A DNA stretch of 63,889 nt, filler included, from an uncultured bacterium (lineage in GTDB: Bacteria; CAZSTA01): assembly GCA_964609495.1 (NCBI GenBank). It is 10 parts of 10 records of this genome, joined end to end, with 100 filler letters (N's around TTAATTAATTAA, not from the genome) between each part and the next. Parts side by side here need not be neighbours in the genome. Positions count along the whole stretch, not along the records: positions 38,892 to 45,177 come from CAZSTA010000208.1; 9 more parts are not named here. One strand, 5' to 3'. A program made the translations under genes and the position numbers. Under the pieces are notes generated by a model, which was given only the letters and a program-made list of their open reading frames with translations, was not told where the DNA came from and ran no database searches. Of this stretch, positions 6,530-57,927 are shown in pieces (position 1 is the first letter of the stretch; every line of letters starts with the position of its first letter).

Positions 6530-6629
6530 NNNNNNNNNNNNNNNNNNNNNNNNNNNNNNNNNNNNNNNNNNNNTTAATTAATTAANNNNNNNNNNNNNNN
6601 NNNNNNNNNNNNNNNNNNNNNNNNNNNNN
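6530..6629. other. artificial scaffold linker; also at 13105-13204, 19559-19658, 26010-26109, 32403-32502, 38792-38891, 45178-45277, 51498-51597, 57817-57916
   Basis: N-run + TTAATTAATTAA (stops in all six frames) + N-run, 100 nt each. Plain 100-N intra-scaffold gaps occur at 37013-37112, 41413-41512 and 52740-52839. Confidence 0.97.
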
Positions 6630-7016
6630 GATCAGGCGCTTTATCAACTCGACCATCTCATTTATATGCTCGGTAGCTCTAGGATATAACTCCGCTCGCT
6701 CTATGTTAAGGGTATCAATATCCTCAAAAAAGGCATTGATATAAGTCTCGGTATATTCATTGATAGGTATTCCCTTCTCCCTCGCTCCCTTGATAGTCTT
6801 ATCATCAATATCGGTGAGGTTCATCACCTGTGTAATTTGATAGCCCTTGTATTTGAGATATCGCCTGAGTATATCTTCAAACATATAAGCTCGGAAGTTT
6901 CCGATATGGGCATAATCATAAACCGTAGGTCCGCAAGTATACATCTTAACCTTGCCTTCCTCTAAAGGCGCGAATTTCTCCTTCTCTCTAGTCATCGTAT
7001 TGTAGAAATACAGCAT
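6630..7016 (-). CDS. cysS: cysteine--tRNA ligase, N-terminal part (truncated by scaffold end)
   Basis: MYTCGPTVYDYAHIGNFR (HIGH-type motif), NLTDIDDK, YPRATEHI. Confidence 0.95.
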
Positions 7017-7029
7017 AACCTTTCCCCCT

Positions 7030-8874: not shown

Positions 8875-8884
8875 TTCGATGACC

Positions 8885-9280
8885 TCATAAATGACCCAGA
8901 ATTTGATGACCCTCTTGAGACAAAACCAGGATTGCTCTTTTCACATCCTTCTCTTTAACCAGCAAGTAGTCGGTATCGTAGCTTGATACCGCAAATATAC
9001 TGATACTCGCACGCGCCAACGGCATAGCAAGTGAGGCGAGGATCCCAGTCAAAGTGAAATCTAAGGGACCTTCGACCTTTAGACATCGCCATCCCTTATC
9101 ACACTCCATCCCTTCTGGAACGTTAGTTTGAGGACACACAACCGAAAGTTCATCAGGAGTTCGTGTAATTGAGAAAAAGCTACCGGTGAGTGCCCAATCA
9201 GGAATCCGAGCATCCTTATCCAGTCTGCAAATCGCGAATTTATCCTGCAAAATTGAAAGTGTGAGTTTTAAATCAGTCAT
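8885..9280 (-). CDS. ACT-domain protein (ACT_7/CASTOR-like)
   Basis: FFSITRTPDELSVVC; GPLDFTLTGILA...ISIFAVSSYDTDYLLVK. Confidence 0.9.
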   Translation of the reverse strand: MTDLKLTLSILQDKFAICRLDKDARIPDWALTGSFFSITRTPDELSVVCPQTNVPEGMECDKGWRCLKVEGPLDFTLTGILASLAMPLARASISIFAVSSYDTDYLLVKEKDVKRAILVLSQEGHQILGHL

Positions 9281-9286
9281 ATCCTC

Positions 9287-11383
9287 TCAGAATATCTTGC
9301 GCCAAGCCAGATGGTCCTCGATTTCCTTGCGCGTCCGCCAGGCTAGTCGCAACTCCTTGCGAGCGAACAGCTCCAGTTGGTCGGAGAAGTGAGGACTTCC
9401 TGGCTGAGACGCATTGCCGTAGGCAGTGAGCACCATAGCCCTTACTGGGTCAGAGAACTCAACCACGGCAATGAAGGAATCACCTCCTATAGCTTGAAAG
9501 CAATCAGACGCTTCCTCGAAGCCGATTGCCCGGAAGATGCCCAGGGGATCAGAGCCACCGCTGGCGGGTAGATCTATCTCGCCGCGATGCAGTCGGTGAA
9601 TCTCACCCCAAGCCACGTCCAGAGTCCCATAGTCAGCCTCAACCTCGGCCGCCGCGGCTTCAAGAGCCGCAACCGCGATGGCTGGATCAGATAGACCACT
9701 GGGCGCGGTAAGAGGAGAATCCTCACTCCAGGGGGTAGCAAATATGTCCCAGGGGTTATAAATGGAAAATGTGCCCCAGGGGTTAATCTCTTCTGATGTT
9801 CTCTTCCGTTTGGAATCTTCCCAGCGGTATATCATCTCGTTGATAAAAGCTTCAAAGAGCACCGCGCCACAGCTATCCGCATCGACATTGCGATCCCAGG
9901 CGGAAAGCACCTCGGCAGATCGATGGGCTATCTCGCCGCCATGATGTCGCGCGGCGGTTATCAAGTCATCGAGAAGATGGTCAGCTATCTCCATACGTGT
10001 CGAGTGTTTGTATTCGACTAGTTTCTCGAAGGAAATACGTTTGTCCTCAATAAGCATTTTTGCCGAGCGCTGTGCCCGAAAGTGCATGAAACGTGGCGCC
10101 ATATAGGGCGGGAAATCGTCCGGAGAAAGCACAGAGGGAAAGGTCGTCGTCCAAGGTGGATCGTTCGCATTCTGTAACCAGCCGCTCGGTGGATCGATCA
10201 CGCGTGGCAACTCCTCGTAGGCGTGGGTTTTGGTCCACAGCGTGGCAGACGTGTCACCCGGAACGATGTCCCACCAGTCCCACTCGCCTTTGGGTCTGAC
10301 CGGGGTTCGACCGCCGAAGAGATGCATAATGTGTCCGTCGCGATCAGCGTATATCACTGTGAATATCGGGATTTGCAAGCGCTTTAGCGCAGCCTCGAAC
10401 TCGGTCAGGTTTGTCGCCCGTGCCATATCCCACCACTGCTCCAACATGCCAGGCTGGTCAAGACCAGCGATCCGCAGAGCGATCATCTTATCATCTTTTT
10501 CCGCAACTACAGGTCCATGGATCGATCGTCGCACTATGAGTTGCTCCTCGCGCAGGGTGCCGTCATCCTGCTTCACCTTCAAGGTATGTTCCTCTGTCTC
10601 AAAGGCTCGGACCTCGCCGTCCCAGCGATAGCCGCCGTCAGCCAGAGTGAGTTCGTAGGCATCCCACCCCTTGATTGTGTTCACTGTGTGAGTCCAGCCC
10701 AGGTAGTCGTTGAACACAACGCCCAGGCCGGCGAAGCCGACGAGGGTTGCCCCATAAGCATTGACCTCTGGAGCGGTAAGCTGAGCCTCATAGAAGAGGA
10801 ATAGATCCGACCAAGGGAGGTGTGGGTTCGCAAGGAGCATCGCCTTCCCACCGGCGGAACGTGCTGGCGCGATAGCCCAGCCGTTAGAGCCTGCCGAGCG
10901 CCAGGCATCATTTATATTCGCAACCCTCCGCGCATCAACTACAAAGGTGAAATGGATTACGCGCTGAGTATGGGCAAGCACGTCCACGGCATCAACTGGC
11001 AGAATAACCTTGACCTCGTCATCGATCTGATCGGGATGCTCCCGAACATAGGCATTTATCCCATCAGCGAAGGCCTTGAGATAGCTACGAAAGGTCGGGC
11101 TCTGCGCCTCATACCACTTGCGGGCGCGAGCGGGGATCCCCATAGTCCGCACCCACCGATCCGATTCCAGATACTCCTCTCCCCAGTATTCGCCTGCTCG
11201 TCCCCGCGCTTGACCGTAGAGACGCAAGATCAGATCACCGTGACTCTGCATCTGCGCCCAGCCAAAGGCGTGAAAGAGGCTCTCGATGTCCTTCGCAAAG
11301 ATATGTGGCACGCCCCAGGTATCCCAGAGGATCTCGGTGCGCTCCGTCTCAGTAGGTTGGTGTAAATTCGAATCTTCTGACAT
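9287..11383 (-). CDS. penicillin acylase-family Ntn-hydrolase (AHL/aculeacin acylase-like)
   Basis: WDTWGVPHI, beta-subunit nucleophile GSNGWAIA, LLANPHLPW. Likely start MSEDS at 11383 after GAAGGGAG; no signal peptide from this start. Confidence 0.9.
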   Translation of the reverse strand: MSEDSNLHQPTETERTEILWDTWGVPHIFAKDIESLFHAFGWAQMQSHGDLILRLYGQARGRAGEYWGEEYLESDRWVRTMGIPARARKWYEAQSPTFRSYLKAFADGINAYVREHPDQIDDEVKVILPVDAVDVLAHTQRVIHFTFVVDARRVANINDAWRSAGSNGWAIAPARSAGGKAMLLANPHLPWSDLFLFYEAQLTAPEVNAYGATLVGFAGLGVVFNDYLGWTHTVNTIKGWDAYELTLADGGYRWDGEVRAFETEEHTLKVKQDDGTLREEQLIVRRSIHGPVVAEKDDKMIALRIAGLDQPGMLEQWWDMARATNLTEFEAALKRLQIPIFTVIYADRDGHIMHLFGGRTPVRPKGEWDWWDIVPGDTSATLWTKTHAYEELPRVIDPPSGWLQNANDPPWTTTFPSVLSPDDFPPYMAPRFMHFRAQRSAKMLIEDKRISFEKLVEYKHSTRMEIADHLLDDLITAARHHGGEIAHRSAEVLSAWDRNVDADSCGAVLFEAFINEMIYRWEDSKRKRTSEEINPWGTFSIYNPWDIFATPWSEDSPLTAPSGLSDPAIAVAALEAAAAEVEADYGTLDVAWGEIHRLHRGEIDLPASGGSDPLGIFRAIGFEEASDCFQAIGGDSFIAVVEFSDPVRAMVLTAYGNASQPGSPHFSDQLELFARKELRLAWRTRKEIEDHLAWRKIF

Positions 11384-11430
11384 ATTCCATACTCCCTTCA
11401 ATAGAGATATTATGAAGCAACACATTACAA

Positions 11431-12048
11431 CTAATCGAAGTCCGTCAACCAATCTGGATGACGATAATGCTCAAAGAGTCGGGCTACTTGAGCAGGTGTA
11501 ACCCGAGAGATAGATAGTTCGGGAAGCTCATCCTCGGGGAAGAATGCCACGTCATCCGTCTCCAAACTCCGCGATGGGGATCCGCCTATAAGCTCGCATT
11601 GAAAGAAAAGTTTGTAGATATAAAACGGATGAGGCGTATGCGCATGTCTGCTCCTGTCATAGAGGGCTAGCAGTTTGACCGCTCGGGTGCGGTAACCAGA
11701 CTCTTCATACACTTCTCGAACTACAGCCTCGCTGGGAGATTCGTTGACATCGGCCCATCCGCCCGGCAACGTCCAGAGGCCATCTTCTTTTTCCTTGACC
11801 AATAAGATGGTATCGCCACGAAACACTGCTCCTCGCACGTCAACTTTGGGAGTCGCGTAGCCTACCTCACTGGCGAAGAGATCACGGACGTAGTTCAGCT
11901 CCACATCGGAATGAGCGACCATAATCTCAGTGGCAATATCGCGCACTGACTCGTATCGCTCAATGTCAAAAGGATTTTGGGTGTAGGTAAGACCGTTTTG
12001 GGCAATCGCTTGTAACTTTTTTGCCCATTTAAGCCACTTAGGATCCAT
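11431..12048 (-). CDS. Nudix hydrolase with Nudix_N domain (ADP-ribose pyrophosphatase YjhB-like)
   Basis: LQAIAQNGLTY, GYATPKVDVR, Nudix box GGWADVNESPSEAVVREVYEESG. Confidence 0.92.
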   Translation of the reverse strand: MDPKWLKWAKKLQAIAQNGLTYTQNPFDIERYESVRDIATEIMVAHSDVELNYVRDLFASEVGYATPKVDVRGAVFRGDTILLVKEKEDGLWTLPGGWADVNESPSEAVVREVYEESGYRTRAVKLLALYDRSRHAHTPHPFYIYKLFFQCELIGGSPSRSLETDDVAFFPEDELPELSISRVTPAQVARLFEHYRHPDWLTDFD

Positions 12049-12138
12049 AAATCCCTCCTAATCGGATAACATTTAGGTATATCTAAAGTCCTGCTATTAT
12101 GTTCTCTCACAAAAAGTGCCCTTGTTTCTCTTCCTAGA

Positions 12139-12945
12139 CTATCTCACCACAGGTGCCAGAAAATGCAGAGCATTAAACCGTTCAAAAGCCTTGAGAAAAT
12201 CCTCGGCTTCCAAGCTGATGGTCCTTCCATCAACACGTGTCACAAAGTCTAAGTATTCGAGCGCATCCGCGTATGATGGATCAATGAACACAACCTGAAC
12301 TGTAACAGGGCTATTAAAAACGAAGGGCTTGAAATCTGAGGCGCGCTTTACTGCCTCAGTAGCCGCCTTCTCGATCATCTCACGGGCTCTCTTCACCGGC
12401 ACACAGCGAGCGGAAGAACGGCTCACTCCCTCCTTTACCGCCACAGTTTCGATCTCACCTAAAAGCGATCGAGCCTCTTCGCATGCCGCCCGGTCGCCGG
12501 CGACAAGGCCGACTGGCACTCCGTAGAATCCACACAGGGCAGCATCGGTGCCAATCTCTCCCACCTCGATGCCATTGAAAGAGAGGGAGAAGATATTCCC
12601 AGCAAAGGTGTGCGCCATAACGCCGTGTAGGGTCCCAGCTTTGGAATGATAACCCACAAACATCGCAAGATCGAACGAATCGTCAATGCCACCCATATGA
12701 TTCATTGGTTTCGGTTGACCAGAAAGATAGCTTACCCTGGAGTCAAGTTGCCCAGGTAACAGATTGCGCATATTGCCATGACTTTCTCCGGCAAACACCT
12801 CGGTCGCACCTCCGGCAAACGCGCCCCGTGCGGCCGCGTTTACTTCCTCGGTCATCAATCGCCGTTCGAGTTCTCGTTGAGAATCATCCCACTGGACGAG
12901 TCCTGCGATTCCTTCCATATCAACTGCTACAAACACTTTCATCAT
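12139..12945 (-). CDS. M55-family D-aminopeptidase (DppA-like)
   Basis: VAVDMEG, ESHG, FVGYHSKAG, MAHT, GEIG, GD, VKEG motifs. Confidence 0.9.
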   Translation of the reverse strand: MMKVFVAVDMEGIAGLVQWDDSQRELERRLMTEEVNAAARGAFAGGATEVFAGESHGNMRNLLPGQLDSRVSYLSGQPKPMNHMGGIDDSFDLAMFVGYHSKAGTLHGVMAHTFAGNIFSLSFNGIEVGEIGTDAALCGFYGVPVGLVAGDRAACEEARSLLGEIETVAVKEGVSRSSARCVPVKRAREMIEKAATEAVKRASDFKPFVFNSPVTVQVVFIDPSYADALEYLDFVTRVDGRTISLEAEDFLKAFERFNALHFLAPVVR

Positions 12946-13104: not shown

Positions 13105-13204
13105 NNNNNNNNNNNNNNNNNNNNNNNNNNNNNNNNNNNNNNNNNNNNTTAATTAATTAANNNNNNNNNNNNNNNNNNNNNNNNNNNNNNNNNNNNNNNN
13201 NNNN

Positions 13205-19558: not shown

Positions 19559-19659
19559 NNNNNNNNNNNNNNNNNNNNNNNNNNNNNNNNNNNNNNNNNN
19601 NNTTAATTAATTAANNNNNNNNNNNNNNNNNNNNNNNNNNNNNNNNNNNNNNNNNNNNT

Positions 19660-25977: not shown

Positions 25978-26202
25978 TAGAGCGATAGGGGTTTTGCCTG
26001 TCTTTCAGGNNNNNNNNNNNNNNNNNNNNNNNNNNNNNNNNNNNNNNNNNNNNTTAATTAATTAANNNNNNNNNNNNNNNNNNNNNNNNNNNNNNNNNNN
26101 NNNNNNNNNAACTTGTGATGAGTCTCATTCACCTCGACTAGGCCACAGCTCTCGCTACGAATACTCTCCTCCCTACCGCGGGGGAGGCTCCGCAATAAAT
26201 TC

Positions 26203-32402: not shown

Positions 32403-32502
32403 NNNNNNNNNNNNNNNNNNNNNNNNNNNNNNNNNNNNNNNNNNNNTTAATTAATTAANNNNNNNNNNNNNNNNNNNNNNNNNNNNNNNNNNNNNNNNNN
32501 NN

Positions 32503-37117: not shown

Positions 37118-37657
37118 ATGTGGAAATATATAATCTTAGCAGTTATGTGGGGTGTTATCATCTTGGGATGGCTAATCCCAATGATACGACAACGTATTGT
37201 CTATGAAATTTATGAGGCGTGTGGATTAGGTGGCTCCTTTACCCTATTAATCCTTGGTATGGGTGGGGTATTTACCCAGTTTAATATTTTGCCACTCCGA
37301 ATTATTGGCTTTATCCTCTATATTCCCGCCGCTTTTTTTGTTATATCCGCCTTTGTTACACTTAAGCACAAAGGTAAACCAACGGATGCTTGGGAATATA
37401 CCACCACTTTGATCGACAGCAGTGTATTTCGAATTGTGCGACATCCTCTCTATTTAGGGACTGCCATTTGGACAGTTGCCTTGATGTTAATTTTCCAATC
37501 GATTCCATCAGCCCTACTGGGAATAGTAAATATCTTTTGCTTCTGGATGGCATCTAGAAAAGAGGACGCATTCAATATCGAGAAATTCGGAGATGGATAC
37601 CAGGAATATATGAGAGAAGTTCCTATGTGGAATGTTTTTAAGGGATTAAGAAAGTGA
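37118..37657 (+). CDS. isoprenylcysteine carboxyl methyltransferase / PEMT-family membrane protein
   Basis: TM helices, FRIVRHPLYLG, KEDAF..KFGDGYQEYMREVP. Confidence 0.8.
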   Translation: MWKYIILAVMWGVIILGWLIPMIRQRIVYEIYEACGLGGSFTLLILGMGGVFTQFNILPLRIIGFILYIPAAFFVISAFVTLKHKGKPTDAWEYTTTLIDSSVFRIVRHPLYLGTAIWTVALMLIFQSIPSALLGIVNIFCFWMASRKEDAFNIEKFGDGYQEYMREVPMWNVFKGLRK

Positions 37658-37782
37658 GGATTATGAGCAAAGTCATTTTCAAAATTTAAAGATATGAGTG
37701 AGCAACTTCATTTGATAACGTGTTTGCGTTTCGCCTCGCTCACTCAAACTCGCTCTACAAAATTCTTTGGGAGGGTTAAACA

Positions 37783-38727
37783 GTGAGTGAAATAATAAAT
37801 GAGCAGAAAAGTTTATTTGAGAGTGACGCTTACCAAAAGGGTGATATGAACCTCGTGATAAAAGATAGAGAAGAAAAACGAGAGTGTCTGCTCGAGGAAA
37901 TAAAAAATAGAGTTATCTTAGGCAATGCGCTCAAAGTTCTCGAAAAAATGGATGGCGAAACTGTTGATATGGTATTTATCGACCCTCCCTATTTCTTACA
38001 GATACCGAGAAAAGAGCTAAGACGATGGGGTGTTAAAACTCAAGTTGAAGGAGTAGATGATGAATGGGATAAATTTTCATCTTTCCAAGAGTATGACGAG
38101 TTTATTCGTTCGCTTCTCAGGGAAGTGAAACGAGTGATGAAACCTAATGCTACTCTATGGGTAATAAGCACCTATCATAGTATCTTTAGAATTGGCAAAA
38201 TTATGCAGGATCTGGGATTCTGGATATTGAATAATGTAATTTGGGTGAAGACCAACCCAATGCCAAACTGGTTAGGCGTGAGGTTCACCAATGCAACTGA
38301 AACTCTTATTTGGGCGGTGAGAGATAAAAATGCTAAGAAATATACTTTCAATAAGGATTACGCGAAAATCTTTGGTATCGGGAAGATAGGAGCGAATGTC
38401 TGGGTATTGCCTTTATGCGGTGGCAAGGAGAGGCTGAAGGATGAGAGGGGCAAAAAATTGCACTCCACCCAAAAACCTATTGAATTGCTTAAACGAGTTA
38501 TAATGACTTCTACAAAAGAGGGGGATTTAATATTAGATCCCCTGGCAGGAGTTGGAACAACAGGATATGTTGCTCAAGCGCTAAAACGCGATTTTATTAT
38601 GATAGAGATAGATGAGGAATATGTGGAAGGTATAGAGAATAGGTTTAAAAACCCATTAGGAATAAAAGAAACTTTAAAGAAGAAACTTAGGACAGATTTT
38701 GAATCAAGTTTAGGTATATTATTTTAA
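37783..38727 (+). CDS. beta-class DNA methyltransferase, CcrM/M.HinfI-like
   Basis: IDPPY precedes DPLAGVGTT; NPMPNWLGVRFTNATETLIWA and LCGGKERLKD...HSTQKP resemble CcrM signatures. Confidence 0.85.
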   Translation: MSEIINEQKSLFESDAYQKGDMNLVIKDREEKRECLLEEIKNRVILGNALKVLEKMDGETVDMVFIDPPYFLQIPRKELRRWGVKTQVEGVDDEWDKFSSFQEYDEFIRSLLREVKRVMKPNATLWVISTYHSIFRIGKIMQDLGFWILNNVIWVKTNPMPNWLGVRFTNATETLIWAVRDKNAKKYTFNKDYAKIFGIGKIGANVWVLPLCGGKERLKDERGKKLHSTQKPIELLKRVIMTSTKEGDLILDPLAGVGTTGYVAQALKRDFIMIEIDEEYVEGIENRFKNPLGIKETLKKKLRTDFESSLGILF

Positions 38728-38976
38728 AAAGGATATGTTTAAATCTGGAAGATATAATTCGCTATATTTATGTGTCATCAGTGTATAGAGANNNNNNNNN
38801 NNNNNNNNNNNNNNNNNNNNNNNNNNNNNNNNNNNTTAATTAATTAANNNNNNNNNNNNNNNNNNNNNNNNNNNNNNNNNNNNNNNNNNNNATTATACCA
38901 GATATGAGGCGAATGTCAAGAGCATATTGGAGAAAGGAGGCAAAGAGATATAAGTATATTAAGCATATTGCATATC

Positions 38977-39005
38977 TTGACAAAATAAAAATTTTAGGGT
39001 ATAAA
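38977..39005 (+). promoter_or_regulatory. promoter of the MerR-like HTH gene
   Basis: TTGACA-17nt-TATAAA. Confidence 0.6.
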
Positions 39006-39038
39006 TAGCAGATATAATATAATTCGGAGGGGGACTTT

Positions 39039-39230
39039 ATGGATAAGGAAGAAGAAACCTTTACCATCAGTCAAGCGAGTGAGATGACTGGAGTTAGTGA
39101 TCAGACTATTAAAATTTGGGAAAAACTAGAGAAGATAGGTCCAATCAAAAGAGATTGGAAAGGATGGAGAATATTTACCAGAAAGGATATCGAGGATATA
39201 ATAAGGGTTAGAGACTCAAATATCCTTTAG
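39039..39230 (+). CDS. stand-alone MerR-type HTH protein
   Basis: FTISQASEMTGVSDQTIKIWE...KRDWKGWRIFTRKDI; RBS GGAGGGGG. Confidence 0.85.
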   Translation: MDKEEETFTISQASEMTGVSDQTIKIWEKLEKIGPIKRDWKGWRIFTRKDIEDIIRVRDSNIL

Positions 39231-39367
39231 CAGTCAACGTTGACTGCTAAATTCTTAAAGGGCGAATTTTTTCCCTGAAGATACCCTAATTTTAATTTAC
39301 TTGTGGTAACCTTCGTTATCGCAAGTAAAAGATTAGAAGTGGGTCATTAATAGATATTAACAGCCCG

Positions 39368-40141
39368 CTAAACTTCGACTTTCCCCCTGACGATCGGCTC
39401 TTGAATACCATCCCTTACCTCCCCAGCATACTTGATCTTACCTCTGTAGAGCGAATTAGATAATATCCTCTGGACTCCCCTATGAGTCCAACCACATCCT
39501 CTCTTGGTAGTATATCCCTCCTCATTTAACCTCTTCGCTATCGCTCTAAGAGATAATCCTCTCCTCTTTAACTTTCGGATATACTTTACAATCTTGGCTT
39601 CAGCTTCATTTATCACTAGCTTAGAGTGAGAGCGTCCATTCCGCTGTGAGTCATATCCAAGAGCTAAACCACCTCCAGCATAACCACCATCTTTATACTT
39701 GCGTAGCCTTCCCGCGGTTAATCTTAATCGGATAAGCTCTTTTTCATACTCGGAAAAAGCTCCTTTTATCTGTCTAAAAAGTCGAGTGGAGGGATCGGAT
39801 TTGTTAAGGTCGGGTTCGGTTATGGAGTATAACTTGACTTCAGAGACTTCCAGTTCCTTCTCGATAAACAACTCGGCAAATAGGTCCCTAGCAAGCCGAT
39901 CCAATCTATACACAATAACTATATCGAACTCCCCTTCCTTAGCACTGTCCAGAAGGGAGAGTAAAGCGGGGCGATCTAAGGTAGCCCCACTTATACCAGC
40001 ATCTTCATATATCCCGATTAACTTATACTTCTGGTCTTTACAATACTCAGTTATCTCCTCACGCTGGATATCTAACGATAGCCCTTCCTCAGATTGGATT
40101 TCTGTGCTTACTCTGATGTAGCCGACTGCTCTAGTCTTCAT
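39368..40141 (-). CDS. serine recombinase (resolvase catalytic domain plus Recombinase domain)
   Basis: GYIRVST (catalytic Ser), DAGISG..DRP, YRLDRLARD, then LGY...EAKIV...IAKRLN...W....VQRILSNSLYRG; no zinc ribbon. Confidence 0.92.
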   Translation of the reverse strand: MKTRAVGYIRVSTEIQSEEGLSLDIQREEITEYCKDQKYKLIGIYEDAGISGATLDRPALLSLLDSAKEGEFDIVIVYRLDRLARDLFAELFIEKELEVSEVKLYSITEPDLNKSDPSTRLFRQIKGAFSEYEKELIRLRLTAGRLRKYKDGGYAGGGLALGYDSQRNGRSHSKLVINEAEAKIVKYIRKLKRRGLSLRAIAKRLNEEGYTTKRGCGWTHRGVQRILSNSLYRGKIKYAGEVRDGIQEPIVRGKVEV

Positions 40142-40427
40142 CTTCCTCAACTCCTTCAGCATCCACTCTGATCTCGATAGGTTGCATAACTGCGTCTAAA
40201 TCCTTCAATTTAAGTCTAACTGCCCTGCCAGCACTCGATTTATAGGCTTTGATCTTTCCTTTTTGAATCCAGCGCCATAGGGTAGTCCTCCCAATATTGA
40301 GATATTTGTAAGATTCGCTAAAATTCAACCATCGTTCTGGAGCTTCTACTCTGCTCTCTAAATTGGATAATCGTTTCTCTAAGGCTGATATCCTATCCTC
40401 AATCCCTTTTATATGATCCATAATCAT
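40131..40427 (-). CDS. excisionase-like HTH_17 DNA-binding protein with N-terminal coiled coil
   Basis: WLNFSESYKYLNIGRTTLWRWIQKGKIKAYK...VRLKLKDLD; stop overlaps the recombinase start. Confidence 0.8.
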   Translation of the reverse strand: MIMDHIKGIEDRISALEKRLSNLESRVEAPERWLNFSESYKYLNIGRTTLWRWIQKGKIKAYKSSAGRAVRLKLKDLDAVMQPIEIRVDAEGVEEDED

Positions 40428-40818
40428 TTTTATCCTCTCCTTTACTTTGATGTTTTCGTCTTATTCTTCCCATCTTAACCTCGATATCCTCTGCAATTGT
40501 ATCATCCTCCCAATCAGGATATACTTCCCTAGCGATCTTATTACCCTTAGCCACGCAATCCTCAAGACTACCTTTAACTATCACTTCATCTTTATTCTCA
40601 ATTATCTCGGTAAGATCAGGATTTTCGGCAAGTAGCTTTTCAGCTAGTCCACCAACCGTTATCTCTAATCTCCTTCTCGTAACTATTCTCTTGTAAAGCT
40701 CATATACATTCTCATCATCAGTTCCTCTTAGAGATAAGCAATAGGCTTCCTTTCGATCTCTCCAAGTAAAGAAGTCTATCTCACCTTTGTCTTTCAGTAG
40801 TTCTCTTCTGATCTCCAT
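40399..40818 (-). CDS. hypothetical protein, 139 aa
   Basis: ATG with RBS AAAGGAGAG; overlaps the next gene. Confidence 0.7.
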   Translation of the reverse strand: MEIRRELLKDKGEIDFFTWRDRKEAYCLSLRGTDDENVYELYKRIVTRRRLEITVGGLAEKLLAENPDLTEIIENKDEVIVKGSLEDCVAKGNKIAREVYPDWEDDTIAEDIEVKMGRIRRKHQSKGEDKNDYGSYKRD

Positions 40819-40839
40819 ATTATCACTCTCCTTTCAGAT

Positions 40840-41145
40840 TTACTTACCATTAGACTCTGATAATCTCTTCTTCTGAGCGAAATATTCTTCAAGGATAAGA
40901 AGCCCTCTCTCAGATTTCCAGCCTCTCTCCTGAAGCTGTGGGATAAGAAGATCAGTATTACAGATATTATTATCTTCAATATGCTTCAGTGCCTCTTCTA
41001 CAGTGGCAAAGTCTGGAGTTATATTAGTTACCTCATAATTCCAATCATACCACTTCCTAGTCTTCTCCGTATCTATATCTACCGAGATATACCAACCCTT
41101 TCCTCGCCACTGATCCCTGTTTTCATACTCTACGATCATATACAT
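40840..41145 (-). CDS. hypothetical protein, 101 aa, Trp/Tyr-rich
   Basis: ATG with RBS AAGGGGGT. Confidence 0.7.
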   Translation of the reverse strand: MYMIVEYENRDQWRGKGWYISVDIDTEKTRKWYDWNYEVTNITPDFATVEEALKHIEDNNICNTDLLIPQLQERGWKSERGLLILEEYFAQKKRLSESNGK

Positions 41146-41214
41146 TTTATTTTACCCCCTTAAAATAAACAGACTAGATTAGGATTAAGGGGGGTTGTTA
41201 CCCCCCCTCAACTT

Positions 41215-41647
41215 TTACTTTTTACCATTCCCACTTGCCATAGCAGGTTCCTTAGCTAATTCCTCAAGCTCGGTAAGAAAAGTTCTCAACTTAGAAATAT
41301 TAAAGAATATTCCTAAGTCAAATTTTCCTCGTAGTGGATGTTCGACATGAGCGAAAATTCTGTCCCCCCAAGCTCGAATTTCGGTCTTAACCCCTCTGGG
41401 AATTTCAAACTCNNNNNNNNNNNNNNNNNNNNNNNNNNNNNNNNNNNNNNNNNNNNNNNNNNNNNNNNNNNNNNNNNNNNNNNNNNNNNNNNNNNNNNNN
41501 NNNNNNNNNNNNATCAACGGGAAGGCTCTTATCTCTACCATTGTCAGTAGCAACCTCTACCTTCACTTCTTCCTTCACTTCAGGCTTTACCTCTACCTTA
41601 GCTTCAGGTTTTTTAGGTTTAGGTGGAGTCCTGACATTCTTACCCAT
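41215..41647 (-). CDS. hypothetical protein, probably one ORF spanning the N-gap 41413-41512
   Basis: Strong RBS AAAGGAGGTGA + ATG at 41647 (MGKNVRTPPKPKKPEAKVEVK...); after the gap EFEIPRGVKTEIRAWGD...NGKK* ends at 41215. Confidence 0.55.
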
Positions 41648-41773
41648 AATATCACCTCCTTTCCTTATCTTTTTATTTGATTTTCAAAGGTCAAATATTT
41701 ATATTATTTATTAACAGTCAACCTTGACTGGTTTAGAGCTAAGGCAAGGTTTAACCGCCTTGCCTTAGCTTAG

Positions 41774-42022
41774 TTACTTACTCTTTTTTGGATGTTCCCT
41801 TCGCTCAGTGTCCAAGTTGACCGAGGCGTCCTTCAGAAGTCGTATAACTTCCACTTCCTCTAACAGTGCAGTACTCTGTTCTAAAATAGCTGTGCAACCC
41901 TTAATAGTCTCCAGTAGCCAACCTTCCCGGTCCTGTTCCCCTTTCCGACACGCTTTATAATACTTGTCTATACAAAACTTAGCGTGCTTAAAATGTTCCT
42001 TCCTTACTTCCTCTAGATTCAC
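41774..42022 (-). CDS. hypothetical protein, 82 aa
   Basis: GTG with RBS AAGGGGGT. Confidence 0.65.
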   Translation of the reverse strand: MNLEEVRKEHFKHAKFCIDKYYKACRKGEQDREGWLLETIKGCTAILEQSTALLEEVEVIRLLKDASVNLDTERREHPKKSK

Positions 42023-42123
42023 TTCTTTTTACCCCCTTAATATAATTTATACTTAATACCTGTTAATACTTTTGGTTAGAGGGGAAGGGAGCTTCCCCTC
42101 CCCTCTAACAGTATCACAACCCC

Positions 42124-42387
42124 CTAACAAGCTAGTGTAACTTCGACTTGGAAGACCTTTTCGAGTATAGTATTTGCAAAGTCAAGCAAATTGTCAATCG
42201 GGGTATTATATAGGTCCCAAGTTTTTCTCACGCTGTCTCTCTTGTCAACCCCTTCGACAAGACCCCCAAGACACTCGTTATATCCCTTCTGCTTTCCCTT
42301 CTCTTGTAACCCCTCTACCAGTAGCTCCACCTCTTTTACACTTAGACCAGACTCAGAAGTTAGTCTTGTGCAAAAAACCTTACTCAT
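42124..42387 (-). CDS. hypothetical protein, 87 aa
   Basis: ATG with RBS AAGGGGGT; first gene after the promoter at 42579-42607. Confidence 0.7.
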   Translation of the reverse strand: MSKVFCTRLTSESGLSVKEVELLVEGLQEKGKQKGYNECLGGLVEGVDKRDSVRKTWDLYNTPIDNLLDFANTILEKVFQVEVTLAC

Positions 42388-42578
42388 TTCCTTACCCCCC
42401 TTCTTTTTCCTTGCAATCGAGAAGGGGTTATGTTAAACTTTATATGGAAGCCTTCTTAACTGCAAGGTTTTCGACTTGCCTTCTGCTAGGTTCTCTCTCA
42501 AGGTTGCCTAGCAGGAGGTTTTATTTTTACCTGCTTTTCAAGGTTCAAATCGTTCTGGTTCTACTATTACTACTCTAT

Positions 42579-42607
42579 ATTATACCACAAAGTTTCAAAA
42601 AAGTCAA
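42579..42607 (-). promoter_or_regulatory. strong promoter of the small-gene operon
   Basis: TTGACT-17nt-TATAAT with extended -10 TG and A-rich UP-like sequence upstream. Confidence 0.75.
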
Positions 42608-42940
42608 GTTTTTTTCTCTTTTTTTAATTATTTTTTTACCTTGCTAAAGTATAGACTATGACTACACTTTCAAATTCTTATGGAAACAGTCAAGTAATAA
42701 ATTTTTAATACTTTTTTCTATTGTTAGGAATTATAGTAAGTAAATATAATATCTTAACTAGGTATATTGCTATAGTATATAATAGTATCAGTTAAGTATA
42801 TTAGTAAGTAATTATGAGTTAATATATATATCATCTTGCCTTAATATATATTATCTTAAAGGGCAAGTTTTTAAGCTGGGGAACTTGAGTCCTGTATTAG
42901 TATTTGGAGAATACCAATATAATATATTTTACATATAAAC

Positions 42941-42969
42941 TAGACAAAAGAGCAGATATTCAGTATAAT
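42941..42969 (+). promoter_or_regulatory. promoter of the FxLYD gene
   Basis: TAGACA-17nt-TATAAT. Confidence 0.6.
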
Positions 42970-43007
42970 AAAGGGCAAGGATAAAGAATTAAGAAAGGAG
43001 GGTTAAA

Positions 43008-43658
43008 ATGAAGAAAGCTATTAAGGTTATCCTGGTGATGTTGATAGCTATTTTTATGGTTAGTGGGCTAGCTGAGGCAAAGGGAGCGATAAAGAAGGTA
43101 AGTTCATTCTTCTATAAGGATTTACTCGGAAATGGCTGGATTGTAGGGGAGATAAAGAATGTTGGGACTATAGCTACTGAGAATAATAAGGTAATAGCTA
43201 CTTTATATGATAGGAATGGTAAAATGATCGGAGTTGAATCATCACATACAGATTTAGATATCCTACTACCTGGGGAAAAATCACCCTTTAATATATTAGT
43301 GGAAGATAATGTGGATAAGGTAAAGAAATTTTCCATCAAGTTATCTGCTGATGCAACTACTGAGAAGCCCCTAAGATCAATTAAGGTTCTTAACAAAAAT
43401 AGCTATATTGGGGAACTTGATGACTTTGTAGTAGTAGGAGAGGTAAAAAACAGAGGGAAGAAAACAGCAAGATTTGTTATGGTTATTCTTATTCTGTATG
43501 ATAGCAGAGGAACGACTGTTGGATGTGATTCTACCTTTGTGGAAATTAGTACCCTTGCACCAGGAGAGACATCCCCATTTGAAATTTCTATAATTCATGA
43601 TGTGCCAGTCAAAAAGGGAAAGAAATATAGAGTGATTACACAAGCAATGTATGATTAA
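43008..43658 (+). CDS. secreted protein with two FxLYD-type Ig-like domains
   Basis: Signal peptide ending AEA; two repeats of (I/V)VGE(I/V)KN.G...LYD..G...G...L.PGE.SPF. Confidence 0.8.
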   Translation: MKKAIKVILVMLIAIFMVSGLAEAKGAIKKVSSFFYKDLLGNGWIVGEIKNVGTIATENNKVIATLYDRNGKMIGVESSHTDLDILLPGEKSPFNILVEDNVDKVKKFSIKLSADATTEKPLRSIKVLNKNSYIGELDDFVVVGEVKNRGKKTARFVMVILILYDSRGTTVGCDSTFVEISTLAPGETSPFEISIIHDVPVKKGKKYRVITQAMYD

Positions 43659-43684
43659 TTGAGATTTAGCTTACAAATGATCAC

Positions 43685-43725
43685 AAACACAAGCAGGTTA
43701 TTTTGTCTGCTTGTGTTTTTATTTT
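43685..43725 (+). terminator. intrinsic terminator
   Basis: Stem AAACACAAGCAG / CTGCTTGTGTTT followed by TTATTTT. Confidence 0.8.
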
Positions 43726-43727
43726 AA

Positions 43728-44078
43728 AAAGATACTATTTATCGCGCCTTAGAGACAATACTTGAGCAAGAGAAAGCAGAGCGAGAGCAGAAAGCATTAG
43801 ATTTATATCTGAGATGTTGGACACAAGAGCAGATAGCCAAGGAACTAGGTGTGGGACAACAAACAATAAGCGAAATTCTTACCAATTTTTCGCAGGTGCA
43901 AAAATCTGGTAAAAGTGATGATTTCAAACCATTTCTCTATAATATCTGGAACTTGCAAAAGCAAGATAATGTAGTAGATACTCACTTTGGGAGCTTCCCC
44001 CAAATCTTTATGGAGAATCTCTTATATTATCATACCCAGGTATTTGATATAGTAAAAGGCAAACTGCTTGTATTTTAA
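43728..44078 (+). pseudogene. relic of an HTH plus N6/N4 DNA-methyltransferase-type phage gene
   Basis: Open frame with no start before the HTH: YLRCWTQEQIAKELGVGQQTISEIL, then YNIWN...HFGSFPQIFMENLLYYHTQVFDIV, stopping just before the expected DPFxGxG motif. Confidence 0.55.
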
Positions 44079-44125
44079 ATACTGACATATACCTGACTAT
44101 AACAGACAGTTTGAGAAGATAATAG

Positions 44126-44155
44126 TTGACTAATCGAGGGGTTTTATGTTATAAT
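44126..44155 (+). promoter_or_regulatory. promoter upstream of the tape-measure-like gene
   Basis: TTGACT-18nt-TATAAT with extended -10 TG. Confidence 0.65.
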
Positions 44156-44224
44156 TAATAGTGAAAGGAGTTTCATTTTAGACTAGAGAAGATAGATTAG
44201 ATTAGCGGAGATGAGACTAGATAA

Positions 44225-45177
44225 ATGCCAGATGACTATGAACTAAGAACAAGTTTAGAAGCGATAGATAAATTCTCTAAGGTAATGGATCAATATCTCC
44301 ATCGTCTTGACGCTATCGAAAAAGCACAGGAGGATTTATATAAAAGTCAGCAGAAGCAAGTTTCCATATCTGATAGAAGTGCTAAATCACTCGATAGACT
44401 TGCTGATACTGCCAACAAATTAGAAAGAGAGCTTAAAGACGTAGATAAACAATCAGTTAGGTTCGGGGGAACGCTAACTGATTTTTCTATTAAATTCGGA
44501 TTAGTCTCTCAAGGTATCTCTCAGGTTTTATATCGAATAAATCAGCTAAAGCAAGGACTTGAAGATGCTATCGCTCCAGCCCTCAAGTATAAGATGACCT
44601 TTATGGAGCTAGAAACTATGGCTGGAGATGTAGCAGGAGAGTTTGAAGGTGTTAAAGATATCATCTCCGAGAATAGAGGAGGGTTATTCTCTGATCAAGA
44701 TATAGCAAATGCTATCGCCTGGGGCAAAAGGCTCGGTGTTACAAATGCAGAGATAAGAGAAATATTACCATCTCTAAGAGACTTAGCTTCAGTATATGGT
44801 GAAGACCTCCAGACTGCGATGTTAGCAGTAGTAAGGGCTGGTAAGCTTGGAGAAGCTGAATTAGCAGAGAGACTTGGTCTTACTTTACGAGCCAATTCGA
44901 TACAGAAGGAATCTTTGGAACTTTATGGTAAGACTGCCGATGCCCTCAGTGCCGAAGAGAAGATGCAGGTGGTCTTGCTCGCAGTTAAGAACCAATCTGC
45001 GAAGCTAAGAGGATTTGAAAATGAGTTGATGGGAACTGCCATTGGTCAGCAGAGACAATTCAATGCTGCGATGGAGAATTACCGAAAGGAATTAGGTGTA
45101 AAATTACTACCCGCATATCTGGACTTACAAGAAGCTCAGATAGAGTTTATGAGAAATATAACAACCGATTGGGCTCC
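44225..45177 (+). CDS. phage tail tape-measure-like protein, N-terminal part (truncated)
   Basis: LEAIDKFSKVM N-terminus, helical Ala/Leu-rich core (LRDLASVYGEDLQTAMLAV...ELAERLGL...KELGVKLLP). Confidence 0.7.
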
Positions 45178-45706
45178 NNNNNNNNNNNNNNNNNNNNNNN
45201 NNNNNNNNNNNNNNNNNNNNNTTAATTAATTAANNNNNNNNNNNNNNNNNNNNNNNNNNNNNNNNNNNNNNNNNNNNCCTTACCTGTAAGAATTATACTA
45301 TAGTCCCAATCTTATGTCAATACCTTTTTGGGAAAAGTAAGGCATGTAAAACCGTGCTAGAGGGTTTTGGGAAGAGGAATTTATATCTTCACCTAACAAT
45401 CTAAAAACTGATAATAGGAACTCATTTCTTTGAAACTACTTGATTGAGACGGTTATCGCCCAGTTCACGGAACGCCTTCATATTCAAGGAATGAAGGTTA
45501 GAAGGCGGTGAAAACTGCCTCAAGTAGCGGCATAAAAAATAAGGTGGAAAAGAGAGAAGAAAAGAGTTAAAATAAGAAGAGAAAATAGGAGTGGGTGAAA
45601 AATTGGAGTTTAAGTAGCTGTTGCATGATCGGCAATTAGGAAGTAATCAGGATGATTCCAAACAGGCTCTGAACATATAATTATAAAATAAAGAGGTGGT
45701 TAAAAG

Positions 45707-47035
45707 GTGCGTGGCAATTGTAAGCAATTAGTATATTCAATAGCTATTAGCATCATCTATGTTTCGTTGGTTATCAGTTGTAATACAAGTCAAGGAAACC
45801 AGATAGACACAACTCCTCCCGCACGACGCGAGTTCATTGATACTACCGATGGCATCCATATCTTCAACGACCAGTTGTTTTGCTGGGATAACGAGGCTTG
45901 GTTCCAGTTTGCCGCAACGCATTATGTTGGGACGCAGAAGCTCACACGTTCGGATGCCGATCGAATGCGCAGTTATAACTCCGATTTTATTATCTTGCAC
46001 TACCGGCTCGGTACTGGTCTGGGCTATCGTGAGATCCAAGGCGATTGCAATCCAAGCGGTGATTGGCTGGAGATCATCGAAGGCGATCAGTGGGTTCGAG
46101 AGTGGCCGGGTGAGGCCAAGATTCAAGACAGTTGGTTCTTCAAATGGAATAGCCAGCGGGTCTTGAACTGCGAGTGGGGCTGGTACCTGACGGAACTGAA
46201 TGATCCTAGCTGGCGCACTTGGTGGCTTGGTGAGGTATTGCGGCAGCTGGCGGCTAACGATAACGATGGGCTATTTGCCGATAGCTTTAGTGTGCCTAAT
46301 TATTTAGGCGGTGCCGATACCTGGGAACCCGATTTGCCAGAAGTTGATAGCAACTTCGAGCAAGCTTGGGCTGAGCGGCTCGAGAATTTCATCGCCTATC
46401 TCAGCGACCAGTTCGCTGGCAACTACTACTTAATCCCCAACATTGGCGCATGGATAACTACTCGTAATCCGACTGACTATTCAGCTGTGGACGGTGTTAT
46501 GATCGAGGGCTTCGGCGGCTGGGGTTGGGGCGATCAGTTCGAGCTAGGGGACTGGCAACTACAGATGAATCGTATGCTCAGCCTGATCAGCCAGGACAAG
46601 ATTATCATAGCCCAGAATTACGTCGATCCGAACGATATTGACGACCGCTTGTTTGTTCTTGGTTGCTATCTTCTGATTAAAGGACGTTATAGCTATATCA
46701 ATATGGACTTTGCTATGGAGCCGGAATGGTTCCCAGAATACGAGATACCCATCGGCAGTTACGTTGGCGGTATTCCCACAGATATAGATTCGCTCTACGA
46801 TGCCAACTGGGATGTTTACAAACGGCAATACACAAATGGACTTGTATTGGTCAACTCTGATACGACCGCCCAGACAGTAGATCTTGGTAGGACCTACTAT
46901 CTAGCTACACCAATCGGTGGCGGTATCATACCAGACGATGGCGATATTTCAGCTTGGACTGTAACTTACCACCCAGTAAATAGCATGACGCTATTAGCTG
47001 GACAATCAGCTATCCTGCTGAATGCAGAGCCATAG
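45707..47035 (+). CDS. secreted/lipoprotein putative glycoside hydrolase (GHL15-like)
   Basis: Lipobox-like LVISC, aromatic-rich, DGLFADS, DGVMIEGF, VYKRQYTNGLVLVN. Confidence 0.55.
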   Translation: MRGNCKQLVYSIAISIIYVSLVISCNTSQGNQIDTTPPARREFIDTTDGIHIFNDQLFCWDNEAWFQFAATHYVGTQKLTRSDADRMRSYNSDFIILHYRLGTGLGYREIQGDCNPSGDWLEIIEGDQWVREWPGEAKIQDSWFFKWNSQRVLNCEWGWYLTELNDPSWRTWWLGEVLRQLAANDNDGLFADSFSVPNYLGGADTWEPDLPEVDSNFEQAWAERLENFIAYLSDQFAGNYYLIPNIGAWITTRNPTDYSAVDGVMIEGFGGWGWGDQFELGDWQLQMNRMLSLISQDKIIIAQNYVDPNDIDDRLFVLGCYLLIKGRYSYINMDFAMEPEWFPEYEIPIGSYVGGIPTDIDSLYDANWDVYKRQYTNGLVLVNSDTTAQTVDLGRTYYLATPIGGGIIPDDGDISAWTVTYHPVNSMTLLAGQSAILLNAEP

Positions 47036-51497: not shown

Positions 51498-51597
51498 NNN
51501 NNNNNNNNNNNNNNNNNNNNNNNNNNNNNNNNNNNNNNNNNTTAATTAATTAANNNNNNNNNNNNNNNNNNNNNNNNNNNNNNNNNNNNNNNNNNNN

Positions 51598-57816: not shown

Positions 57817-57927
57817 NNNNNNNNNNNNNNNNNNNNNNNNNNNNNNNNNNNNNNNNNNNNTTAATTAATTAANNNNNNNNNNNNNNNNNNNNNNNNNNNN
57901 NNNNNNNNNNNNNNNNGAGGGTGATAA

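Follow-up and report, generated by a model that had tools for sequence, protein, structure and literature searches.

An operon of small genes ending in a large serine recombinase gene lies on the minus strand of contig C208 in the draft genome of an uncultured salt-marsh bacterium. It is read here, with a little better than even confidence, as the accessory and excision operon of a decayed fragment of a lineage-specific integrative element. The window analysed (63,889 bases) is not a chromosomal stretch: ten contigs, consecutive and sorted by size, are strung end to end in it, and the operon falls entirely within C208 (window positions 38892-45177, 6,286 nt). An earlier note on this DNA had described a promoter at 42579-42607 leading into small open reading frames (ORFs) and then to a helix-turn-helix (HTH) gene and a recombinase gene, all of which are present, and had taken the whole for a phage-like early operon. 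The minus-strand order is leader, orfA, hairpin H1, orfB, H2, the pieces of orfC, H3, orfE, orfF, the excisionase-family HTH gene and the serine recombinase gene (SD, Shine-Dalgarno sequence):

42579-42607, minus strand: sigma-70 promoter of host type with extended -10 (TTGACT-17-TGgTATAAT; 11 of 12 consensus matches, TG before the -10)
42388-42572, minus strand: untranslated leader of about 185 nt with several hairpins
42124-42387, minus strand: orfA, orphan, 87 aa, SD AGGGGGGT
42075-42109, minus strand: H1, 16 contiguous pairs and a 3-nt loop, starting 14 nt past the orfA stop
41774-42022, minus strand: orfB, orphan, 82 aa, GTG start, SD AAGGGGGT
41737-41770, minus strand: H2, 13 pairs and an 8-nt loop, starting 3 nt past the orfB stop
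41513-41647, minus strand: 5' piece of orfC, 45 aa, Lys/Glu/Val-rich, continuing into the gap
41413-41512, no strand: scaffold gap, plain 100 N, true length arbitrary
41215-41412, minus strand: 3' piece of orfC, 65 aa, or a separate sixth gene
41184-41212, minus strand: H3, 11 pairs including G-U and a 7-nt loop, starting 2 nt past the stop of the orfC 3' piece
40840-41145, minus strand: orfE, orphan, 101 aa
40399-40818, minus strand: orfF, 139 aa, one relative known
40131-40427, minus strand: excisionase-family HTH protein, 98 aa, N-terminal coiled coil
39368-40162, minus strand: large serine recombinase, C-terminally truncated, 257 aa from the ATG at 40141

That an HTH gene and a recombinase gene stand at the end of the operon is confirmed by family scores. 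The HTH protein is excisionase-like (HTH_17, PF12728, 41.9 bits against a cut-off of 27; TIGR01764 'excise', 38.8 against 28.8; phrog_66, E 2.7e-8), and its gene overlaps both orfF, by 29 nt, and the recombinase gene. The recombinase has a resolvase domain (PF00239, 130.1 bits) and a Y-x-R-x-S motif, its nucleophile serine S12 is invariant in the alignment, the Recombinase domain (PF07508) is matched at 64 of 102 positions, and the CcrB model is matched at positions 5-239 of 542 with 178.7 bits. Matches of two HTH proteins to PADLOC 'mad1' were rejected as a sign of a defence system, being generic HTH similarity (NCBIfam MAD1 27.4 bits, cut-off 80).

The recombinase is cut off seven residues past the DG-HE-II motif, which is conserved, and does not reach the zinc ribbon or the coiled coil. 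Among related recombinase loci, of which 32 of the 38 fetched were examined (L036, L037 and L042, which are partial matches, and L032, L034 and L035 being left out), the open frame is 378-622 aa long in 31 and 295 aa long in the remaining one. When four full-length relatives were used in tblastn against the genome, residues 1 to ~260 only were found, on C208, and no C-terminal half. A second sign of decay lies on the plus strand of the same contig at 43728-44078, where a 116-codon open frame encodes an HTH (Pfam HTH_3, Sigma70_r4) and the first possible start codon is a GTG at 43851; this frame is probably what is left of a gene. Towards its C-terminus a DNA-methylase motif was suspected by eye, and none was reported by Pfam. 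From the half-length recombinase and the HTH frame without a start codon, it was concluded that the element is probably incapable of moving by itself, even if the recombinase may be short yet functional. Pieces of related genes occur on contig C321 (L048), with a 46-aa stub of a related serine recombinase at 1650-1790, 79% identical over 33 residues, and, on the opposite strand at 1972-2259, an open frame that by eye resembles the C-terminal tail of a large serine recombinase.

The nature of the larger element is suggested by the surroundings of the single relative of orfF. This protein, P0002, is 48% identical to orfF, shares long identical motifs with it and is encoded on the metagenome contig L007 (4,025 nt). 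Past the orfF relative, L007 carries a promoter like that of the operon, a MerR-family gene, the gene of an FtsK/SpoIIIE-like ATPase (469 aa, with a winged-helix-like tail) and membrane-protein genes. A full-length homologue of this ATPase (27% identity, E 1e-40) is encoded on contig C173 of the draft genome, together with a membrane protein and a 974-aa primase with a CHC2 zinc finger. Both contigs are poor in guanine plus cytosine (GC): C173 (0.376) is third lowest and C208 (0.381) fifth lowest among the 349 contigs, in a genome of GC 0.439. They also share a palindrome, GCAGTCAACGTTGACTGC, which contains TTGAC and of which there are three copies in 3.78 Mb, two on C208 and a third on C173 (106-123; L047), where about 0.1 would be expected by chance and shuffling of the window gives 0.08. 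The features that concern the palindrome on C208 are as follows:

39039-39230, plus strand: MerR-family HTH protein, 63 aa (Pfam MerR_1 38.5 bits, MerR 35.3 bits)
39229-39248, no strand: perfect palindrome of 20 bp, AGCAGTCAACGTTGACTGCT, in the space where the MerR-like and recombinase genes converge
41715-41730, no strand: near-perfect copy of the palindrome (CAGTCAAC C TTGACTG) with one central mismatch, 7 nt past H2
41721-41694, minus strand: weak promoter-like site overlapping this copy, 9 of 12 consensus matches

At neither copy on C208 does the palindrome coincide with the main operon promoter. It is predicted, from sequence, to be probably the binding site of one of the small HTH proteins of the element. 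From these shared features C208 and C173 are inferred to be parts of one element, and C208 most likely represents part of an integrative element peculiar to the lineage, one that would also include the FtsK-like ATPase and the primase. The ATPase family has no relative in IMG/VR, and a collection of 185,579 species genomes gave just a P-loop-sized match; it may represent a family of integrative elements that is so far undescribed. Within the draft genome, FtsK/SpoIIIE-like ATPase paralogues of ~452-455 aa are found on three low-GC contigs, C173, C318 and C331 (L047, L054 and L055). An imperfect dyad at 39296-39332, just downstream of the truncated recombinase gene, recurs at 5254-5290 of contig C218 (L049) with identical arms and a different centre, flanked there by aminotransferase-like and TPR-like ORFs; the dyad may serve in recombination or may be a hairpin common to both contigs.

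Expression signals in the operon are those of the host. Promoter-like sites number 34 in the interval 37500-46000, compared with 21.8 +/- 4.1 in shuffled sequence, and only 5 of them score 11 or 12 of 12; promoters resembling that of the operon are also found on contigs C37, C87, C205 and C227. The leader, whose 5' end follows from a transcription start deduced from the promoter position, folds with -46.7 kcal/mol (z -2.28; 2 of 200 shuffles as stable). No Rfam family reaches its gathering score in it, the best being RAGATH-12 with 21.8 bits against a gathering score of 75. Of the three ORFs said in the earlier note to share the SD AAGGGGGT, two, orfB and orfE, have it exactly, and the third, orfA, has the near match AGGGGGGT only; the others carry AAGGAGGT or GGAGAG. 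Since the shared variant occurs 145 times in the genome, as compared with 489 times for AAGGAGGT, it is a host-type signal. The 29 nt that span SD and start codon are 83% identical between orfE and orfB, and these near-duplicate blocks suggest module shuffling. In the block orfE-orfF-HTH-recombinase the genes are packed tightly, with gaps of 21 nt or overlaps, from which translational coupling is inferred.

The small genes upstream of the recombination genes are real by the measure of codon usage. In a codon model trained on 1,573 long host ORFs, in which all six frames were compared for each small-ORF piece, the annotated frame came first in 6 of 6 pieces, orfA included, and the description of small unknown genes on a mobile element is thereby confirmed as to coding. 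The codon scores of the pieces (0.07-0.45) lie mostly under the host 5th percentile (0.18 for 90-codon pieces; host mean 0.29), as would those of foreign genes. The count of five small ORFs needs qualification: the SD-led ORFs are real, and the third is split by the N gap, so that there are five or six. By a reading of the loose ends of metagenome contigs, both orfC frames stay open into this gap, and they differ if it is counted as 100 nt, a conventional length; possibly there is one gene of ~130 aa or more here, or two. No metagenome contig spans the gap, into which loose ends from runs X2 and X3 extend by medians of 37-40 letters on the 41513 side and 41-73 on the 41412 side.

Relatives of these proteins are all but lacking in the collections searched. 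The large-database search covered orfA, orfB, orfE and orfF: among 5.8 billion cluster representatives orfA and orfE matched only themselves, and HMMER against 1.84 billion representatives returned for orfB the protein itself and two long repeat proteins, with no accepted relative. These two, P0006 and P0007, were rejected as homologues, being repeat proteins that match one short motif 13 times each. No small-ORF piece has a credible family match in Pfam, PHROG, NCBIfam or PADLOC, and tblastn of all C208 proteins against their own genome disclosed no paralogue of any small ORF. Structure prediction was of little help: AlphaFold2 gave five models of orfF that disagree (pLDDT 62.6, from a two-row alignment) and for orfE a single-sequence prediction (pLDDT 58.7), all too poor to use. 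With the low-quality orfF model, Foldseek against the Protein Data Bank (PDB) gave a best E-value of 0.46; a sequence-profile search of the PDB with orfF gave no match at E <= 0.5, and the atlas held no usable match to it.

It might be supposed that the small ORFs are not genes, or that C208 was misassembled from unlike pieces or was binned with the wrong genome. Large-database searches left three of four small ORFs without a relative, a scaffold gap lies within the operon, and contamination of the bin and the low GC of C208 would fit. Such an explanation is nevertheless very improbable in the face of the codon model, of a well-spaced SD at every ORF, of the conservation of orfF in P0002, of promoter and SD variants that are present on other contigs of the genome, and of independent metagenome assemblies from four runs, which cover parts of the stretch with 0-25 differences per piece.

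The remaining feature of the operon, three stable hairpins without U-tracts, was borne out. Folded with its flanks as 66 nt, H1 reaches -35 kcal/mol (z -5.07; -29.1 kcal/mol without flanks), H2 reaches -22.8 (z -3.80) and H3 -19.9 (z -3.17), and for none of the three was any of 200 shuffles equally stable. Each is a GC-rich stem-loop past a gene and lacks the U-rich tract of 7-9 nt that a canonical terminator has: at the end of the stem no 8-nt window contains more than 3 T in H1, 4 in H2 and 4 in H3, and a canonical-terminator scan lists none of them. The earlier note was thus supported in holding that these are not canonical intrinsic terminators. H3 was also considered as a terminator of the opposite strand, where T-rich letters are found, and rejected, as a 5-nt spacer follows the GC core and the scan does not list it.

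In lacking U-tracts the hairpins of the operon do not stand apart from those of the genome, which was surveyed by calling 2,807 genes (greedy ORFs of at least 120 aa) and folding the 75 nt past each stop. Hairpins of -15 kcal/mol or below occur at 267 of 2766 gene 3' ends and in 28 of 2807 mid-gene controls, and hairpins of -18 kcal/mol or below at 181 gene ends and in 7 controls. Strong hairpins are thus enriched just past stops ~10-fold at -15 kcal/mol and 26-fold at -18 kcal/mol. Among the strong gene-end hairpins, 59 of 265 (22%) reach 6 T or more in some 8-nt stretch at the end of the stem and 152 of 265 (57%) do not exceed 4, the corresponding values at random positions being 6.3% and 78.6%. 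H1-H3 belong to this majority class of hairpins without a T-rich tail. Intergenic hairpins without U-tracts are ordinary in this genome and are no mark of a phage early operon. Where neighbouring genes run in the same direction with 30-150 nt between them, 107 of 703 gaps have a strong hairpin, so that three in succession are above the 15% base rate, though not dramatically.

What such hairpins do was considered with the help of other systems. The host encodes both Rho (657 bits) and RNase III (TIGR02191, 256.1 bits), each over its family cut-off. A 2025 preprint on Synechococcus (10.1101/2025.11.10.687660) reports canonical-looking ends for only 22% of transcription units. According to Czyz et al. 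2014 (PMC3993855), mycobacterial RNA polymerase fails to terminate in vitro at hairpins without U-tracts, even with NusA and NusG. On these grounds autonomous termination at H1-H3 is rated less likely, and roles as stabilisers or in factor-assisted termination appear more likely.

The hairpins could still be real terminators, U-tract-independent or factor-assisted, dividing the operon into two or three transcription units. In the more explicit form of this proposal the main promoter would drive orfA and orfB as far as H2, and the weak promoter at 41721-41694, with its -35 in the palindrome, would drive orfC through to the recombinase gene under the control of the palindrome-binding protein. 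The palindrome copy past H2 does contain TTGACT, followed after 16 nt by AATATT, and the palindrome is confined to contigs of the element. Convergent gaps of the size given above carry strong hairpins more often (27 of 110) than co-directional gaps do, a difference that transcript-ending hairpins would produce. In addition, metagenome contigs from runs X1 and X5 match the stretch to the right of 41702 and diverge to its left, beside the palindrome; related elements in marsh populations are therefore mosaic there, and 41702 is suggested to be a module boundary, which may have an operator of its own. The -10 of the second promoter is poor, however, in AT-rich DNA where sites of 9 of 12 exceed the shuffles modestly (34 against 21.8). 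No promoter-like site past H3 is able to serve orfE, the site past H1 would initiate transcription within the SD of orfB, and the mycobacterial polymerase, in the work cited above, was reportedly not stopped in vitro by hairpins of this kind. Division into several units is therefore unlikely, while remaining the sort of arrangement to which a minority share of belief is given.

RNase III substrates usually need about two helical turns, often with an internal loop. Processing by this enzyme, one of the roles suggested in the earlier note, is conceivable for H1, where the 16 pairs can be extended to ~25 with the flanks, and unlikely for H2 (13 pairs) and H3 (11 pairs), which are short by that measure of length.

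The hairpins had been part of a broader interpretation, in which the locus is a phage early or host-takeover operon, its small genes new anti-defence proteins, its HTH protein Aca-like and its hairpins RNase III sites as in T7. A strong promoter followed by small, fast-evolving orphans and an HTH gene in one operon is what would be expected of it, RNase III is at hand, H1 can form about 25 pairs with its flanks, and there are host defences to counter, with CRISPR-Cas (Csc2, Cas1, Cas2, Cas4) and AbiE-type genes on other contigs. The atlas clusters nearest to orfE are viral hypothetical proteins, at a best score of 0.77 that is below the meaningful level. Several results nonetheless make this interpretation improbable. 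No terminase, portal, capsid or tail genes are linked to C208, bar a sub-threshold tape-measure-like fragment; tblastn against 50,697 phage records found nothing for orfF or for that fragment; and orfE, orfF and the FtsK-like family lack relatives in IMG/VR. The one relative of orfF sits in an element with an FtsK-like ATPase and a MerR-family gene. The HTH protein scores above the excisionase cut-off and its gene overlaps that of the recombinase, which fits a directionality factor or recombination regulator better than an Aca. The hairpin type is genome-wide and not specific to the operon, and H2 and H3 fall short of about two helical turns. No small ORF matches an anti-restriction or other annotated family of PHROG or Pfam, nor did Pfam, PHROG, NCBIfam and PADLOC, none of them a library dedicated to anti-defence, show any similarity to an anti-defence family. 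The designation of the operon as phage-like is thus not supported, and an integrative element is favoured. As for an anti-defence role by itself, the layout agrees with one, and none of the results speaks in its favour.

The CRISPR system of the host lies on two low-GC contigs, C172 and C326 (L058 and L059), which carry genes for Csc2, Cas4, Cas1, Cas2 and a WYL regulator as well as the first part of an array whose repeat is 37 nt long. The assembled array on C326 has two complete spacers before the contig ends. Neither these spacers nor the flanks of six isolated repeat-like matches have a match on C208 or C173, a sample too small to inform.

Several points weigh against the integrative-element reading. 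C208 and C173 are tied to each other by one shared palindrome, by low GC and by gene order in one metagenome contig; C208 has the integrase and excisionase genes, C173 those of the primase and the FtsK-like ATPase, and no contig connects the two. The terminal gene of C208 matches tape-measure models below threshold (TMP_3, 23.9 bits against 41; phrog_31409, E 3e-6), which leaves room for a tailed-phage origin. The genome also has an HK97-type terminase-portal-capsid cluster on C83 (~5946-12573, minus strand). The bin has a contamination of 4.26%, so that C208 could come from another organism. No RNA run is among the listed runs that contain the stretch, and termination, processing and stabilisation are for that reason indistinguishable. 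Finally, the hairpin statistics were built on the crude gene calling described above, and in a small mixed set of other bacteria 12 of 28 hairpins have a T-rich tail and 12 of 28 are without one, a modest contrast, in view of which the host is not claimed to be exceptional in its hairpins.

Some of these points can be set beside further observations. On the matter of contamination, the promoter, SD and hairpin style of C208 agree with the host. The C83 cluster has a host-like GC of 0.457, and no link between it and C208 was found. It is the sole phage head module in the assembly, with two small ORFs next to it and then a strand switch, and may be a remnant or a capsid-only island.

The draft genome comprises 3,781,453 bases in 349 contigs, with a completeness of 99.45%. 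Its phylum is represented in the collection searched by this genome alone, and all 40 comparison genomes share only domain-level kinship with it; against these 40 the left 2.5 kb of C208 gave just a 26-nt match, at chance level. DNA runs that contain the stretch are from metagenomes of salt marsh, marsh and marine sediment. In the window the contigs are separated by nine artificial linkers of 100 nt, of the form N44-TTAATTAATTAA-N44, at the following positions:

6530-6629, 13105-13204, 19559-19658, 26010-26109 and 32403-32502: linkers
38792-38891, 45178-45277, 51498-51597 and 57817-57916: linkers, continued

Because the contigs are ordered by size and joined by linkers, gene neighbourhood across a linker is void, and genes to the left of 38792 or to the right of 45277 are no neighbours of the operon. 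Among these are a DNA methyltransferase gene (37783-38727) and a glycosyl-hydrolase-like gene (45707-47035), both on contigs other than C208.

The following working of the operon is proposed. A transcript with a leader of ~185 nt would start from the strong, host-type extended -10 promoter and pass through three orphan genes, 'insulated' in that each is led by a strong SD and has a hairpin 2-14 nt past its stop. Once the polymerase has read through, or has been stopped with the help of a factor, the hairpins would shield the upstream segments of the mRNA from 3'-5' decay; perhaps they would also act as weak factor-assisted attenuators, with Rho and NusG as candidates, and step expression down. 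The products of the first three genes would then be made in excess over those of the orfE-orfF-xis-recombinase block, and a small HTH protein of the element would bind the TTGAC palindrome. The RNA biology, the binder of the palindrome and the unity of C208 and C173 are all deductions in this scheme. A bolder, two-part proposal would make the five or six orphans a new host-modulating or anti-defence set in an undescribed family of elements with an FtsK translocase and, at the same time, make the hairpins, here and at more than 150 host genes, a non-canonical form of RNA 3'-end formation or protection. That both parts hold is doubtful, and little probability is assigned to it.

Among known systems, the actinomycete integrative and conjugative elements (AICEs) such as pSAM2 are integrative elements with a Xis-Int operon that are moved by an FtsK-like translocase. 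The operon resembles them in that an excisionase-type HTH gene lies just upstream of, and overlaps, the recombinase gene and that small regulatory or accessory genes are included; the likeness would extend to a primase, membrane proteins and an FtsK/SpoIIIE-like ATPase if, as is probable, they are of the same element. It differs in that the recombinase is of the serine type and truncated, that the ATPase and primase are on another contig with their linkage deduced, that the ATPase family has no IMG/VR relative, that five or six upstream genes have no counterpart and that the host is apparently no actinomycete. As to the recombinase itself, large serine recombinases such as CcrB, XisF and phage integrases share with it the catalytic domain with its Y-x-R-x-S motif and the greater part of the recombinase domain. 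It stops at about residue 257 and lacks the last part of that domain as well as any zinc ribbon or coiled coil.

With anti-CRISPR and anti-CRISPR-associated (Acr-Aca) operons and phage 'morons' there are in common a strong promoter, very small and poorly conserved genes, the first three of them as gene-plus-hairpin units, an HTH gene in the operon, and a position in a mobile element, as marked by the recombinase and excisionase genes. Unlike in those operons, the HTH protein belongs with the excisionases and its gene is coupled to that of a recombinase, no anti-defence family described in the libraries searched is matched, and no phage context was found. In the T7 early region, RNase III sites are hairpins between early genes with an internal-loop architecture; H1-H3 likewise lie between successive promoter-proximal genes of a host with RNase III, but H2 and H3 are short, simple stems without an internal loop. 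As a class the hairpins are like the 'I-shaped' putative terminators of mycobacteria and other lineages, in having stable, GC-rich stems 2-14 nt past stops, no T-rich tail and an enrichment at gene ends, and in this respect H1-H3 are no different from the other ~150 of the host.

The remainder of C208 to the right of the operon contains a 400-nt, AT-rich divergent region (42608-43007) that separates the operon promoter from the gene of an FxLYD-domain protein. Direct repeats are present in it, for example 42723-42747 with 42791-42815 and 42844-42867 with 42956-42979, as is a second consensus promoter at 42941-42969 on the plus strand, and the region may be regulatory or replication-related. 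The gene beyond it is followed by a terminator of the canonical type, a contrast to H1-H3:

43008-43658, plus strand: FxLYD-domain secreted protein gene (FxLYD 67.1 bits)
43685-43718, plus strand: canonical hairpin and T-tract terminator after the FxLYD gene, with 7 T in its most T-rich 8-nt window

As found, the locus is of limited significance, a decayed mobile-element operon with hairpins that are normal for its host. What is known in kind is an integrative-element accessory and excision operon with the usual hairpins of the host; what is new are the orphan genes and the lineage-specific FtsK-like family. At least three copies of the FtsK-like module (C173, C318 and C331) point to an undescribed family of integrative elements, the cargo of which would include these orphans. 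For the biology of RNA ends, a phylum represented by a single genome, in which over half of the strong gene-end hairpins are without a U-tract despite the presence of Rho, provides a useful extra lineage in the question of how such ends form.

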